Source: Eledone cirrhosa
Lineage: Eukaryota
Reading direction: 5' to 3'
Assembly (NCBI GenBank): GCA_964016885.1
Contig: CAXHJY010000078.1
Span: 62,001-126,000 of the forward strand
Length of the DNA: 64,000 nt
Shown one piece after another: positions 57,336 to 64,000 of the stretch (positions are counted from its first letter, which is position 1; each line of letters starts with the position of its first letter). Made by a program: the position numbers and the translations under genes. Under the pieces are notes generated by a model. It was not told the DNA's origin, did no database searches, and was given only the letters and a program-made list of their open reading frames with translations.

Positions 57336-60300
57336 CCAACACACACCAACACCAACACACACCAACACCAACACACACCAACACCAACACACACCAACAC
57401 CAACACACACCAACACCAACACACACCAACACCAACACACACCAACACCAACAAACACCAACACACACCAACACCAACACACACCAACACCAACACACAC
57501 CAACACCAACACACACCAACACCAACACACACCAACACACACCAACACCAACACCAACACCAACAAACACCAACACCAACAGACACCAACACCAACAAAC
57601 ACCAACACCAACAAACTCCAACACACACCAACACCAACACACACCAACACCTACACCAACAAACACCAACATCAACAAACACCGACACCAACACACACCA
57701 ACACCAACAAACACCAACACCAACACCAACAAACACCAACACACACCTACACCAACACACGCCAACACCAACACACGCCAACACCAACATACACCAACAC
57801 ACTCCAACACCAACACACACCAACACCAACACACACCAACAAACACCAACACCAACAAACACCAACACACACCAACACCAACACACGCCAACACCAACAC
57901 ACGCCAACACCAACACACGCCAACACCAACACACGCCAACACCAACACACACCAACACCAACAAACACCAACACCAACACACACCAACACACGCCAACAA
58001 CAACACAAACCAACACCAACAACTACACACGCCAACACCAACAAACACCAACACCAACAAACACCAACAAACACCAACACCAACATACACTAACACCAAC
58101 AAACACCAACACCAACACACACACCAACCCCAACAAACACCAAAACCAACAAACACCAAAACCAACAAACACCAACACCAACACACACCAACACCAACAC
58201 ACACCAACACACACCAACACCAACACACACCAACACCAACACACACCAACACCAACAAACACCAAGACCAACAAACGCCAACACACCAACACCAACACAC
58301 ACCAACACACACCAACAAACACCAACACCAACACACACCAACACCTACAAACACCAACACCAACAAACACCAACACCAACAAACACCAACACCAACAAAC
58401 ACCAACAAACACCAACACACACCAACACACACCAACACCAACACAGACCAACACCAACACACACCAGCACCAACACACACCAACACCAACAAACACCAAC
58501 ACACACCAACAGCAACAAACACCAACACACACCAACAGCAATAAACACCAACAAACACCAACACCAACAAACACCAACACCAACAAACACCAACACACAC
58601 CAACACACGCCAACACCAACACACGCCAACACCAACACACGCCAACACCAACACACACCAACACCAACAAACACCAACACCAACAAACACCAACACCAAC
58701 ACACACCAACACCAACACACACCAACACCAACACACACCAACGCCAACACACACCAACACCAACACACACCAACACCAACAAACACCAACACACACCAAC
58801 ACACACCAACACCAACACCAACACCAACAAACACCAACACGCACCAACACCAACAAACACCAACAGCAACAAACACCAACACCAACAAACACCAACACCA
58901 ACAAACACCAACACACACCAACACCAAGACACACCAACACCAACACACACCAACACCAACACACACCAACAAACACCAACACACACCAACACCAACACAC
59001 ACCAACACACCAACAAACACCAACACACACCAACAAACACCAACACACACCAACACACACCAACACACACCAACACACACTAACACCAACACTGACCAAC
59101 ACCAACACACACCAACACCAACAAACACCAACACACACCAACACCAACACACACCAACACCAACACACACCAACACCAACAAACACCAACACCAACAAAC
59201 ACCAACACCAACAAACACCAACACACACCAACAAACACCAACACCAACAAACACCAACACACACCAACACCAACACACGCCAACACCAACACACGCCAAC
59301 AAACACCAACACCAACAAACACCAACACACACTAACAAACACCAACACACACCAACACCAACAAACACCAACACCAACAAACACCAACACCAACACACAC
59401 CAACACCAACACACTCCAACACCAACATACACTAACACCAACAAACACTAACACCAACACACACCAACACCAACACACGCCAACACCAACACACGCCAAC
59501 AAACACCAACACCAACAAACACCGACACCAACAAACACCGACACGAACAAACACCAACACACACCAACACCAACACACACCAACACCAACACACACCAAC
59601 ACACACCAACACCAACAAACACCAACACCAACACACACCAACACCAACAAACACCAACACCAACACACACCAACACACACCAACACCAACACACACCAAC
59701 ACACACCAACACCAACACACACCAACACCAACAAACACCAACACCAACACACACCAACACCAACAAACACCAACACCAACACACACCAACACCAACAAAC
59801 ACCAACACACACCAACACCAACAAACACCAACACACACCAACACACGCCAACACCAACACACACCAACACCAACAAACACCAACACCAACACACACCCAC
59901 ACCAACAAACACCAACACCAACAAACACCAACAAACACCAACACCAACAAACACCAACACCAACACCAACAAACACCAACACCAACAAACACCAACACAC
60001 ACCAACACCAACAAACACCAACACCAACACACACCCACACCAACAAACACCAACACCAACACCAACAAACACCAACACCAACACACACCCACACCAACAC
60101 ACACCAACACCAACAAACACCAACAAACACCAACACCAACACACACCCACACCAACAAACACCAACACCAACAAACACCCACACCAACAAACACCAACAC
60201 CAACAAACACCAACACCAACACACACCCACACCAACACACACCAACACCAACAAACACCAACACCAACAAACACCAACACCAACACACACCAACACCAAC

Positions 60301-60511
60301 AAACACCAAAACCACCAACCTAATTGAAATAGTTATATAGTTGACAATCAGTATATCATCATCGTCATCAGTACGATCTGAGTTTCTGTTGGTAAATTGT
60401 GCGTGACTCTTTAAAATAGACGACGGCTGAAGAACGGAGAATTGTGGTCAACAGATGTGACGATGGTGGGAACACCAGCTTGTTGCTTGGCTCACTATTG
60501 TCTGTGTGTGT

Positions 60512-60514
<3 letters not shown>

Positions 60515-60564
<50 letters not shown>
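60515..60564. repeat. (TA)25 microsatellite
   Basis: Pure TA run. Confidence 0.97.
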
Positions 60565-60565
<1 letters not shown>

Positions 60566-60757
60566 CGAAGGAAGTGTGGTAAGGAACCAGGTGGACCATA
60601 ACGCACCCGAGTACACGATACTTTGGGTGGTAGAGTGGGTAATAGGAAAAGAGTCAGGACCCCGACGGCAGAACTCAAGCCGTTTTGACAGCTATTTCTG
60701 AACTGAAATAGCTGTCGAAACGGGTTGAGCTCTGCCGTCAGGGTTCTGACTATTGTC
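60565..60757 (-). mobile_element. Short fold-back interspersed element, family F1, copy A
   Basis: 60565-60648 is the reverse complement of 60847-60930 (75/84 by manual alignment) and is also homologous to 62612-62710. Contains a hairpin 60652-60698/60705-60751 (42/47, loop TGAACT). Flanked by (TA)n. Strand is assigned by inference. Confidence 0.75.
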
Positions 60758-60776
60758 ATATATATATATATAGCAG

Positions 60777-60929
60777 CGAGTAGGACCCCGACGGCTGAGC
60801 TCAAGCCGTTTCGACGGCTTGAGTTCAGCCGTCGGGGTCCTACTCGTTCCTATTACCCACTCTACTACGCTAAGTATTGAGTACTTTGGTGCGTTATGGT
60901 CCACCTGGTTCATTACCACATTTCCTTCG

Positions 60930-60930
<1 letters not shown>
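60777..60930 (+). mobile_element. Short fold-back interspersed element, family F1, copy B
   Basis: GC-rich hairpin 60777-60809/60814-60846 (32/33, loop TTCG), followed by the shared F1 tail ending CCTTCGT and then (TA)n. Confidence 0.75.

Positions 60931-60960
<30 letters not shown>
60931..60960. repeat. (TA)15 microsatellite
   Basis: Pure TA run. Confidence 0.96.
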
Positions 60961-60966
<6 letters not shown>

Positions 60967-61023
60967 TAAAAAAATAATGAATAAAACAATGAAACAGTTC
61001 CTTATATTAAACAAAAAAAGTTC

Positions 61024-61172
61024 ATTATTTAACGATCGTTTCTAGGATATATATGTGTTAGAATTGGCATGCATATTCAACAGATCTATGTACAAAATTA
61101 TACAAAATTATACAAACTATCAAAATTAAATATACATACCAAACACATATATATGCCGTCTTCAGAAATATT
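61024..61172 (-). ncRNA. Type I hammerhead ribozyme fold, mirror copy
   Basis: On the - strand: TATTT-CTGAAGA (61165>61159), long stem II, GAAA (61042>61039), CGATCGT, T (61031), AAATA. Stem I is 5 bp followed by an A.A mismatch. Confidence 0.6.
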
Positions 61173-61179
61173 ATATTAG

Positions 61180-61328
61180 ATTATTTCTGAAGACGGCATA
61201 TATATGTGTTTGGTATGTATATTTAATTTTGATAGTTTTTTTATTTTTGTATAATTTTGTACATAGATCTGTTGAATATGCATGCCAATTCTAACACATA
61301 TATATCCTAGAAACGATCGTTAAATAAT
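61180..61328 (+). ncRNA. Type I hammerhead ribozyme fold with extended stem II
   Basis: Stem I ATTATTT (61180-86)/AAATAAT (61322-28); core CTGAAGA (61187-93); stem II 61198-61210/61293-61305 (13 bp) plus 61211-26/61272-87 (16 bp, 3 G.U); GAAA (61310-13); stem III AC-GATC-GT; cleavage triplet GTT (61319-21). Confidence 0.72.
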
Positions 61329-61531
61329 GAACTTTTTTTGTTTAATATAAGGAACTGTTTCATTGTTTTATTCATTATTTTTTTAATATTTTATCTTGAC
61401 TCTGTATTCCGTTTATCTTTCACCGAAAGTGATTTTTCATTGCATCTCTTCTTTCCATGATATCCGGATTATATTGAGTTCTTCATACGGATTGGACACT
61501 ACCGTAAACTCTTGGTAGATTTATCTACATA

Positions 61532-61556
61532 ATATATATATATATATATATATATA
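61532..61556. repeat. (TA)n microsatellite
   Basis: Pure AT alternation. Confidence 0.95.
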
Positions 61557-61714
61557 GGGTGCGGACGATATTTGTTCGCAATTTTTCAACTGCTAATTTT
61601 ATGGAGTTTTTTTTTTACCTGTCTTCATAAAAACTGACTATATTTCCATCATTTAAAACTACTGTGTTATTGTCACCTAGACAGTAATCTTGCGAACAAA
61701 TATCGTCCGCACCT

Positions 61715-61716
<2 letters not shown>
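61555..61716. mobile_element. 162-bp MITE, Tc1/mariner-like
   Basis: Perfect 24-bp TIR GGTGCGGACGATATTTGTTCGCAA (61558-81 / 61690-713). Termini TAGGGTG and CAAGGTG (reverse complement) are each one change from CAGGGTG. TA on both sides; no ORF. Confidence 0.8.

Positions 61717-61783
<67 letters not shown>
61717..61783. repeat. (TA)33 microsatellite
   Basis: Pure TA run. Confidence 0.97.
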
Positions 61784-61784
<1 letters not shown>

Positions 61785-61785
<1 letters not shown>

Positions 61786-61970
61786 GTAAATATCTTTAAG
61801 TCGTTTGGAAGCCTCGACAATACAAATGGGTACACCCACTTACATCTCTCTCTCCACCACCGGACCTTGTTACCCGGAGATTTACCCATTTGCATTGTCG
61901 AGGCTTCCAAACGACTTAAATATCTTTACCTATTATTCCACAATGCTTCAAGCAAACTTCAATACTCTCT
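61785..61970. mobile_element. (TA)n-flanked inverted-repeat element (48-bp arms, 50-nt spacer, 40-nt unpaired tail)
   Basis: 61785-61832 versus 61883-61930 match 45/48 as reverse complements. The left arm abuts (TA)n and the right arm is followed by 40 nt, then (TA)n. Confidence 0.6.
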
Positions 61971-61985
61971 TATATATATATATAT

Positions 61986-62137
61986 GAGTCGGGACCCGAC
62001 GGCTGAGCTCTTGCCGTCTCAACATGTGTGTGTTGTTGGCGGGCGAGATAAAAGTGTACTCAATACCGAAGTAGAGTTTAATTACTCCTTTATTATAGCT
62101 AAGTAGTGGAGTTTCACCTACACACGCAGGTTCATCA
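61986..62137 (-). mobile_element. F1-related element fragment carrying a hammerhead core
   Basis: 61986-62023 GAGTCGGGACCCGACGGCTGAGCTCTTGCCGTCTCAAC matches the F1 core (60651-60689). GTACTCAATAC..GTAGAGT (62056-62077) resembles the F1 tail. (TA)n on both sides. Confidence 0.6.
62083..62137 (-). ncRNA. 5'-truncated hammerhead ribozyme core (relic)
   Basis: The - strand reads TGATGA-ACCTGC-GTGT-GTAGGT-GAA-ACTCC-(19 nt)-GGAGT-A: stem II 6 bp, stem III 5 bp, triplet GTA. C3 and the 5' strand of stem I are replaced by (TA)n. Confidence 0.68.
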
Positions 62138-62180
62138 TATATATATATATAATATATATATATAATATATATATATATAT

Positions 62181-62304
62181 TGTTTCTCCTATTGGCACAA
62201 GGCCAGCAAATACCCAGTACATTACTGGTACTTTATTTTATCGACCCCGTAAGGATGAAAGGCAAAGTTAACCTCGGCGGGATTTGAACTCAGTCCGTAA
62301 AGGG
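62181..62304 (-). mobile_element. tRNA-derived SINE fragment (5'-truncated)
   Basis: The - strand has B-box GAGTTCAAATCCC followed by CTTTCATCCTTACGGGGTCGATAAAATAAAGTACCAG. It is homologous to 62914-62991 and resembles from memory the abundant octopus SINE / MetaSINE central domain. Confidence 0.8.
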
Positions 62305-62354
62305 ACAATGTTATATTTATATGTGTGTATGTGTCTGTGTGTGTATATGTGTAT

Positions 62355-62355
<1 letters not shown>

Positions 62356-62444
<89 letters not shown>
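62356..62444. repeat. (CA)44 microsatellite
   Basis: Pure CA run. Confidence 0.98.
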
Positions 62445-62447
<3 letters not shown>

Positions 62448-62527
62448 TGCTCTTCGTAACAGGTGAAGCATCAACGTAATTATACCACTATCGAGTGAGA
62501 AATTCCTTCCTCTCTCTCTGTCACATA

Positions 62528-62530
<3 letters not shown>

Positions 62531-62572
<42 letters not shown>

Positions 62573-62602
62573 CATATATAATATATATATATATATTATA
62601 TA
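62531..62602. repeat. (TA)n microsatellite, degenerate at its 3' end
   Basis: TA run with interruptions. Confidence 0.93.
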
Positions 62603-62611
62603 GGGAGAGAG

Positions 62612-62715
62612 TCAGCCGTCGGGGTCCTGATTCTTTTCCTATTACCCACTCTACTACCCTAAATATCGAGTACTCTGGTGCGATATGGTCTACCTTGTAC
62701 CTTACCACACATTGT
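62612..62715 (+). mobile_element. Family F1, copy D (5'-truncated, no fold-back)
   Basis: TCAGCCGTCGGGGTCCTGATTC...CTTACCACAC aligns to copy A's - strand at about 88/99 and is followed by (TA)n. Confidence 0.8.
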
Positions 62716-62854
62716 TATATATATACGAACACACAGACACCCAATTGAGATGAAAGAGTTAAGAGTGTCTCGGACTGAAAAGGCCCCTTACGTCCTGGGG
62801 GAAGGCTGACATGATATCCACCAGTTACAACACTGATCTACAATACAGCTGATA

Positions 62855-62991
62855 GCCTGATTGGTAGTATCGGTAAAGGGTCAGACACCATGGTTTGTGG
62901 CATGTAGTTATGGCCCTTTACGCTCGGAGTTCAAATCCCGCCGAGGTGAACTTTGTTTTCATCATTACGGGGTCGATAAATAAAGTACCAG
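62855..62991 (+). mobile_element. tRNA-derived SINE fragment (3'-truncated)
   Basis: A-box-like TGGTAGTATCGG (62862-73), B-box GAGTTCAAATCCC (62927-39), then TTTCATCATTACGGGGTCGATAAATAAAGTACCAG. It is an inverted homolog of 62225-62304. Confidence 0.78.
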
Positions 62992-63818
62992 GTCAGTGTG
63001 TGACAGACTCTACACCTAGGTCAGAGTGTGACACTCTACACCTAGGTCAGAGTGTGACAGACTACACCTAGGTGAGTGTGACAGACTCTACACCTAGGTC
63101 AGAGTGTGACAGACTCTACACCTAGGTCAGAGTGTGACAGACTCTACACCTAGGTTAGTGGGTGACACTCTACACCTAGGTCAGAGTGTGACAAACTCTA
63201 CACCTAGGTCAGTGTGTGACAGACTCTACACCTAGGTCAGTGTGACACTACACCTAGGTCAGTGTGTGACAGACTCTACACCTAGGTGAGAGTGTGACAG
63301 ACTCTACACCTAGGTGAGAGTGTGACAGACTCTACACCTAGGTGAGTGTGACAGACTCTACACCTAGGTGAGAGTGTGACAGACTCTACACCTAGGTCAG
63401 AGTGTGACAGACTCTACACCTAGGTTAGTGTGTGACAGACTCTACACCTAGGTCAGAGTGTGACAGACTCTACACCTAGGTTAGTGTGTGACAGACTCTA
63501 CACCTAGGTCAGAGTGTGACAGACTCTACACCTAGGTCAGTGTGTGACAGACTCTACACCTAGGTCAGTGTGTGACAGACTCTACACCTCGGTCAGAGTG
63601 TGACCGACTCTACACCTAGGTGAGTGTGACAGACTCTACACCTAGGTCAGTGTGTGATAGACTCTACACCTAGGTCAGTGTGTGACAGACTCTACACCTA
63701 GGTGAGTGTGACACTCTACACCTAGGTCAGAGTGTGACAGACTCTACACCTAGGTCAGAGTGTGACAGACTCTACACCTAGGTCAGCGTGTGACAGACTC
63801 TACACCTAGGTCAGAGTG
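62991..63818. repeat. 28-bp minisatellite, ~30 copies, consensus GGTCAG(A/T)GTGTGACAGACTCTACACCTA
   Basis: 30 CACCTAGG-type junctions counted. Variants are mostly 2-bp deletions and point changes. No unique spacers. Confidence 0.97.
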
Positions 63819-64000
63819 GTGTTTCGTCTGCGGACAATGGCCAACGACACCTACTGCAAAATAATATTTATGATAGGAAGTGGGATATGTGAATTAATAC
63901 AAAATATAGAGGCACAAATATTTCTATTTCACCCTGATCAGTCACAAACGTTGTTCTGCTCTGGGCCATAGGAGAGTGGTTAGCGGGTCCCGTGTTCAGC

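Follow-up and report, generated by a model that had tools for sequence, protein, structure and literature searches.

A 574-bp non-coding insertion in Eledone cirrhosa DNA with two head-to-head hammerhead ends and a one-sided tail, likely mobilised by a Penelope-type enzyme

The window, that is the whole 64,000-nt stretch of Eledone cirrhosa DNA analysed here, contains a 574-bp insertion (60958-61531) that belongs to a non-coding repeat family and carries two head-to-head hammerhead ends and a 137-nt tail within (TA)n sequence. The insertion was likely made in trans by the reverse transcriptase (RT) and GIY-YIG endonuclease of a Penelope-like element (PLE), probably of the Hydra clade, a reading to which we assign a probability of roughly 80%. 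The insertion is composed of a short inverted arm, a long arm and the one-sided tail, and two (TA)n tracts flank it. Its features are located as follows.

60931-60959, no strand: left (TA)n tract, the presumed target, recognised from the sequence; it shares its last 2 nt with the end of the palindrome
60958-61170, minus strand: short inverted arm, which stops at the position mirroring 61392-61394, the short end of the family
61024-61172, minus strand: minus-strand hammerhead, with core 61165-61159, GAAAC 61042-61038 and a predicted cut after 61031
61163-61189, no strand: fold-back centre, an 8-bp self-complementary stem with an 11-nt loop (-5.4 kcal/mol) at the 5' end of the hammerhead
61180-61328, plus strand: type I hammerhead with a 7-bp stem I, CUGAAGA, GAAA and a predicted cut after 61321
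61194-61309, plus strand: stem II of 116 nt, defined by folding and family variants
61329-61394, plus strand: T-rich spacer reaching the short end (61392-61394), where many family copies join (TA)n
61395-61531, plus strand: one-sided tail of 137 nt, terminating at the family's long end (61526-61533)
61398-61480, plus strand: ACTC-hairpin-TT-GAGT, a bulged stem whose apical part is enlarged and which begins 4-6 nt beyond the short end
61532-61556, no strand: right (TA)n tract, recognised from the sequence

Anatomy of the insertion and its repeat family

The palindrome forms the larger part of the insertion and has two arms of 218 nt each (60958-61175 and 61177-61394), which are 98% complementary. 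Two of the five arm mismatches are located in the 11-nt centre (61171-61181), and the other three are at 61239, 61241 and 61244. Counted outside the centre, this is the same result as in the initial annotation, which described 213-bp arms with three mismatches; the boundaries drawn there were too narrow, since the element continues to 61531. The three outer mismatches all fall inside a T-run in apical stem II (61231-61250). At 61239 the left-arm letter predominates in other copies, so that the right arm carries either a private change or an assembly slip at this position.

The two outer ends of the insertion, at 60958 and 61531, are unrelated to each other, and the inverted repeat stops at 61394, so terminal inverted repeats are not found at both ends. 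The insertion has an inverted, 5'-truncated end of PLE type, with a head-to-head junction at a short palindrome that recurs in three sequencing runs (X6, X8 and X23). In addition, its one-sided tail is held between two fixed ends, 61394 and 61526-61533, which is also of PLE type. No target-site duplication is discernible around the 574-bp insertion.

The stretch or part of it is present in 19 of the 24 runs listed, under 16 organism labels from 15 studies. No RNA run is among those listed, which gives no evidence about expression. Copies were compared in eight of these 24 runs against 61170-61545, and seven of them contain close matches as pieces or reads. Matches to this segment comprise 1,968 contigs in X1, where contig depths are not equal to copy numbers, and 5,251 reads in X23, while X4, X6, X7, X8 and X9 contain closely matching pieces. 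X1, which may be the source sample, has the same species label as X23. The 18 reads obtained from X20 (Hi-C, of which about 1% was read) are all partial and less than 90% alike and were discarded as spurious.

Both ends of the family are found joined to microsatellite. The short end at 61394 forms such junctions in at least seven contigs of X1, at least two contigs of X4 and at least 431 reads of X23, and one contig of X9 covers exactly 61181-61394. The long end at 61526-61533 does so in at least one contig of X4, at least two contigs of X1 and at least 669 reads of X23. Moreover, the fold-back at 61180-61182 recurs in at least one contig each of X6 and X8 and in at least four reads of X23 with two different starts, hence in three organisms. 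X4 also holds copies in which non-palindromic sequence precedes the same 8-bp hairpin.

X23 is a restriction library with reads beginning at a GCATGC site, and its allele shares are therefore biased. Its reads also have heterogeneous loose ends at 61287, 61331 and 61354, which were not taken as element ends. These are likely digestion-ligation products, because in this restriction library their positions coincide with AATT or with AACT, which differs from it by a single letter; a C>T at 61332, present among family copies, turns AACT into AATT. Alternatively, 61331 and 61354 may be true ends, situated 10 and 33 nt beyond the predicted ribozyme cut.

The window contains no ORF for an RT or a GIY-YIG endonuclease and no evident coding gene. 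A near-open frame at 61323-61529, with X placed at its single stop, has 0 matches among 1.84 billion proteins; it was rejected as coding, since, in addition, family variants fall in it without codon periodicity, judged by eye, and single-nucleotide deletions are frequent. Tandem retrozyme units were not seen either: each arm holds one unit, and no joint from the 3' end to 61180 occurs among the joints listed for the eight runs. The element is accordingly not classed as an autonomous PLE, for lack of an RT/endonuclease ORF, nor as a MITE, because its insertion ends are asymmetric, nor as a retrozyme, because it has no tandem units. The evidence supports an insertion that is non-coding, occurs in multiple copies, has the anatomy of a PLE and carries a hammerhead on each strand. 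The initial label of a non-autonomous, Penelope/retrozyme-like insertion is supported in its Penelope half; its retrozyme half is not shown, as tandem units were not seen.

Hammerhead cores and the long stem II

In the plus-strand hammerhead, 61180-61186 and 61322-61328 form stem I with seven Watson-Crick pairs. The core is made up of CTGAAGA (61187-61193) and GAAAC (61310-61314), followed by GATC, GT and T61321 at position H17. Helix III consists of 2 bp inside a 10-nt palindrome and could reach at least 8 bp in a dimer. On the minus strand, stem I has five contiguous pairs plus one, being shortened because the centre mismatch lies in it. The type I core (C3-A9, G12-A14, A15.1-U16.1 and H17, in type I order) is found on both strands. 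The canonical G10.1-C11.1 pair is absent, and its place is occupied by C·A at 61194/61309, which is invariant among the variant rows listed. This copy has G at 61179, compared with C in 141 of the 147 X23 reads reaching that position. The G therefore seems private to this copy, and C would lengthen stem I to 8 bp.

A search allowing a long stem II, as proposed with the initial annotation, recovers the motif. The relaxed type I descriptor requires at least five pairs in stem I, a palindromic helix III and a stem II region of at most 150 nt. When 61170-61531 is shuffled with its dinucleotides kept, it matches 2 of 20,000 sequences, none of them as strongly as the observed motif. When the 3.7-kb non-satellite part of the window is shuffled, the corresponding numbers are 5 of 2,000 and 0 of 2,000. 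The complete plus-strand hammerhead with stems in register, as first described, is thus upheld by a 7-pair stem I and by the shuffles, and its minus-strand mirror copy retains the core and GAAAC with only five contiguous stem I pairs. Rfam models run over 58000-64000 gave 65 matches (E up to 5), none of which is a hammerhead, the hits being sub-threshold hairpins of miRNA type. This result suggests that standard models miss hammerheads with a long stem II, so that their number in such genomes may be underestimated. Motif scans of metagenome contigs and of viral contigs returned no matches.

Stem II is a 116-nt hairpin, a feature that was overlooked at first. Its foot contains C·A, G·U, G-C and C·C. 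Above the foot, a 5-nt bulge separates a 13-bp helix from a 16-bp helix, which includes four G·U pairs and leads to an apical domain. On the hammerhead strand it folds with -38.2 kcal/mol (z -8.4), compared with -19.6 kcal/mol (z -3.4) on the opposite strand. The fold of the opposite strand is much weaker because the four G·U pairs of the outer helix turn into mismatches.

The variants among family copies follow the same strand. Among the variants listed, which include 40 of the 104 rows of the comparison covering X23, and with those seen only in X20 excluded, pairing is kept or gained by 7 of the 8 that fall in hammerhead helices (null 0.31, P about 0.002); this count includes two gains at mismatches that were added to the pair tables post hoc, excludes 61211 as ambiguous, and draws on unphased variants from few subfamilies, which are not independent. 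Read on the opposite strand, only 4 of the same 8 keep or gain a pair. The stem II variant at 61273 breaks a pair. The preservation of the helix on the hammerhead strand is a strand-biased constraint at the RNA level. A-to-G changes in the stem could alternatively come from A-to-I editing of an RNA intermediate. H17 alternates only between U and A among the variant rows listed, and both are permitted. The 17 core nucleotides hold 0 of the 32 variant places among the variants listed, which is not significant (P = 0.20).

One subfamily departs from the reference at 61207-61209 and returns to it at 61294-61296 (119 joint reads and 621 loose ends). Its loose consensus has ATATACATACC, by eye the exact complement of 61212-61222. 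Judged from these letters, the subfamily seems to retain the long basal helix with a different apical stem II.

The predicted energies of the ribozyme place its active fold above other structures. For the plus monomer, the active form is at -35.6 kcal/mol and the predicted minimum at -39.7 kcal/mol; the active form lies 4 kcal/mol above a misfold in which the GAAA side is paired with the first part of the core. A plus-strand dimer joined through the palindromic helix III has -86.0 kcal/mol in its active form, compared with -79.4 kcal/mol for two monomers and -90.4 kcal/mol for a misfolded dimer. With the minus copy, two monomers (-87.8 kcal/mol) are more favourable than the active dimer (-86.6 kcal/mol). 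Neither as monomer nor as dimer is the active fold predicted to be the ground state. According to this folding model, cleavage after 61321 would require two same-sense RNAs to dimerise and would probably be weak unless assisted by protein. The energies fit the low activity of such ribozymes alone and the protein-assisted cleavage reported in PMC4209133 and PMC11167929, respectively.

As the two hammerheads point apart on opposite strands, dimer pairing within one transcript is impossible. A transcript reading through both arms is predicted to form a duplex of 209 pairs with -309 kcal/mol, in agreement with the long duplex anticipated in the initial annotation. Furthermore, both arms span the cut site, which means that the copied RNA was either uncut at this ribozyme or re-ligated.

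Tail, mechanism of insertion and alternative explanations

The bulged ACTC/GAGT stem is located at the start of the tail, and we infer that it is a candidate signal for the start of reverse transcription. The motif ACTC-hairpin-NN-GAGT occurs twice in 60320-64000, at 61399-61479 in the tail and at 60859-60882. The latter lies about 6-9 nt beyond the point that matches the short-arm end of the neighbouring fold-back family. By comparison, the motif begins in the first 9 nt of 9 of 50,000 shuffled tails. Four of five variants in the tail helix preserve pairing (P about 0.05) and the variant at 61408 breaks a pair; the family consensus C at 61472 converts a G·U into a G-C pair. The tail folds as well on one strand as on the other (z -2.7 and -2.9). 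Two small hairpins, 61486-61505 and 61514-61528, lie at its end, with a fold that is not significant (z -1.1).

In the mechanism that we propose, a PLE enzyme would nick both strands of the (TA)n tract, and each nick would prime the copying of an RNA that is uncut at the ribozyme or re-ligated. Copying would begin at two places, for one cDNA at the short site, which lies 4-6 nt ahead of the bulged stem, and for the other at the long site near 61531; the sequence between them would become the tail. Both cDNAs would then reach the RNA 5' end and be joined head to head via the 8-bp self-complementary end.

Counterparts are found in published PLEs. Insertions with an inverted 5'-truncated pLTR, junction palindromes, a tail and trans-mobilisation of pLTR-only units are described in PMC3846280, and the (TA)n preference and hammerheads of Hydra-clade PLEs in PMC8557442. 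The in vitro work on Poseidon_Ac (PAc) in PMC11167929 reports that both strands are nicked, that two internal RT starts define the tail, that uncleaved RNA is the main template and that the ribozyme is protein-assisted. Opposite-strand hammerhead pairs 100-700 bp apart, with low activity alone, appear in PMC4209133, and Penelope-13_HM in File S2 of PMC8557442 has one hammerhead per strand. That the twin arrangement is special is not supported, since it has published precedent (PMC4209133 and Penelope-13_HM), and given the inverted end, the tail, the (TA)n target and the opposite-strand hammerheads of published PLEs, it is likely a by-product of insertion and not a device. The twin-ribozyme palindrome is likely an ordinary footprint of Penelope-type elements, and as an expected footprint it is of little import in itself.

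The family may further represent a Hydra mini-element made of cis-signals. Its hammerhead, unrecognised by the Rfam models, would be active in spite of the 116-nt stem II, more than four times as long as in any Hydra example compared, its ACTC/GAGT stem would set the RT start 4-6 nt upstream despite a loop insert of ~65 nt, and its tail would correspond to the distance between two such signals. We put this extension forward tentatively, with odds falling somewhat short of even.

The same PLE origin could have produced the palindrome by self-priming, in which one cDNA folds on its 8-bp terminal hairpin and copies itself, as proposed in PMC3846280. The hairpin is located exactly at the centre, and in the X4 copies it stands behind non-palindromic sequence, so it may pre-exist in the template. 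Both arms carry identical alleles at every polymorphic family site, an identity that does not discriminate self-priming from double priming. However, self-priming alone leaves the fixed end of the inverted arm (61392-61394, in several organisms) unexplained, whereas two RT starts, as reported in PMC11167929, explain it. We consider self-priming unlikely, though a serious contender.

A truncated tandem non-LTR retrozyme, replicating via a small circular RNA that is made by dimer cleavage and ligation, is rather improbable. It would agree with both arms crossing the cut site, like copies of a re-ligated circle, and with the lack of an ORF; the X4 sequence upstream of the hairpin could be the remaining monomer, and retrozymes have been proposed as PLE derivatives (bioRxiv 10.64898/2026.07.22.740005). 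Yet each arm has a single unit, and the eight runs list no 3'-end-to-61180 joint, the latter being a weak argument since a longer monomer would exceed a read.

It is very improbable that the insertion is a TA-targeting MITE or foldback DNA element whose hammerhead either matches by chance or was captured and is now inert. The long inverted repeat, the TA flanks, the adjoining TIR-type element (61551-61720), the non-significant core conservation and the lack of an Rfam hammerhead match would all suit such an element, but the ends at 60958 and 61531 are not mutual inverted repeats, the family has two distinct 3' ends, no shuffle of 20,000 equals the motif, and pairing is preferentially kept on one strand.

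We give almost no credence to the twin as a selected switch, with both ribozymes hidden in a 213-bp duplex on read-through and freed in outward transcripts: the predicted 209-pair duplex (-309 kcal/mol) and the head-to-head form in at least three organisms would accord with it, but the insertion mechanism already predicts recurrence, the neighbouring fold-back family at 60565-60930 has the same shape without a hammerhead core, and the locus lies within a repeat nest beside 60 kb of satellite.

Comparison with known elements and the surrounding repeats

With the insertions of endonuclease-bearing PLEs the element shares the head-to-head inverted end, the junction palindrome, the one-sided tail and microsatellite targeting (PMC3846280, PMC8557442). 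It differs from the insertions published there in having no ORF, no discernible target-site duplication and a tail of 137 nt, compared with 30-40 nt (31 nt in Pen2a_Av). PAc likewise has two copy ends separated by a tail, an AT-rich target and a template uncut by the ribozyme. Its starts, however, are inside the ORF at an AC-rich stem-loop, whereas those of the present family are in a non-coding region marked by the bulged stem (PMC11167929).

With the Hydra clade the element has in common the (TA)n preference, an unpaired stem II foot and a GUU/GUA triplet, found in 22 of the 26 Hydra rows in File S2 of PMC8557442 (GUU in 10 and GUA in 12, counted by eye). A non-pairing stem II foot, U·U or U·C, is present in 15 of these 26 rows by eye, and PLE-X1_cBra in the same file has C·A there. 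The C·A pair and the GUU triplet were initially treated as caveats, and these precedents among PLE hammerheads weaken both. A stem of the form [AG]CTC-hairpin-NN-GAG[TC] stands behind the ribozyme in 2 of the 6 new Hydra consensi of PMC8557442 (Hydra-2_Amil and Hydra-2_Ajap, by eye); Hydra-1_Crog has it with one mismatch, and in the other three it is not evident by eye. The (TA)n targeting, the hammerhead style and the bulged stem may support membership of the Hydra clade but do not define it, and helix III differs in style.

In contrast to these relatives, the stem II domain of 116 nt far exceeds the longest one in File S2, about 53 nt, and the longest among its Hydra rows, about 26 nt, and the bulged stem encloses about 65 nt here compared with about 15 in the Hydra consensi (PMC8557442). 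Helix III is a perfect even palindrome, unlike that in most Hydra rows. The type I core, a very short palindromic helix III, the dimer model and opposite-strand pairs are shared with metazoan PLE hammerheads in general (PMC4209133, PMC6765202), the dimer model for PLE hammerheads with a palindromic helix III being reviewed in PMC6765202. Their conserved G10.1-C11.1 is absent in the present family, which has C·A followed by G·U or A-U, and helix II extends far beyond their 7-8 bp (PMC4209133).

Metazoan non-LTR retrozymes are also non-coding, with a type I hammerhead and a high copy number (PMC7229834; bioRxiv 10.64898/2026.07.22.740005), and the axolotl HHR_Amex2 retrozyme has U·U at the base of helix II (PMC7229834). 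They are defined by tandem units and circular RNAs, in contrast to the one unit per arm of this element (PMC7229834).

Two 10-nt family motifs were not found in the supplement of PMC8557442, where line breaks could mask them. We found no published account of this family, of the long stem II or of the bulged stem in the sources consulted; one may stand in subscription papers, in Repbase/Dfam or in the supplementary files of the bioRxiv preprint and PMC4209133. Against the published examples compared, the sequence differs from known PLE ends in scale, namely in its 116-nt stem II and 137-nt tail. The family therefore offers a natural size variant for two questions about PLEs, namely how the RT start is positioned and what role the hammerhead plays when the copied RNA is uncut.

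The insertion is located in a region rich in other repeats. About 60 kb of the window (1-60320) is a C/A-rich satellite with 10- and 16-nt units and a GC skew of about -0.97, and the last 3.7 kb is a nest in which (TA)n and (CA)n tracts stand between short elements. Two fragments in this nest, 62185-62300 and 62905-62995, belong to what we take to be a SINE-like repeat from octopus genomes. Another fold-back family has two insertions between (TA)n tracts at 60565-60930, with related pieces at 61985-62125 and 62612-62716; in each insertion a long arm bearing a one-sided tail of roughly 80 nt faces a shorter, inverted one, and there is no hammerhead core. A further fold-back element lies between (TA)n tracts at 61782-61971. 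It also lacks a hammerhead core; its arms measure 51 nt and its spacer 50 nt, and its one-sided tail of roughly 40 nt has the textbook length of a PLE tail. The element at 61551-61720 is symmetric, with terminal inverted repeats of about 26 nt separated by 108 nt, lies in (TA)n and resembles a true MITE. At the far end of the nest, 62990-63815 is a minisatellite with about 30 copies of 26-28-nt units.
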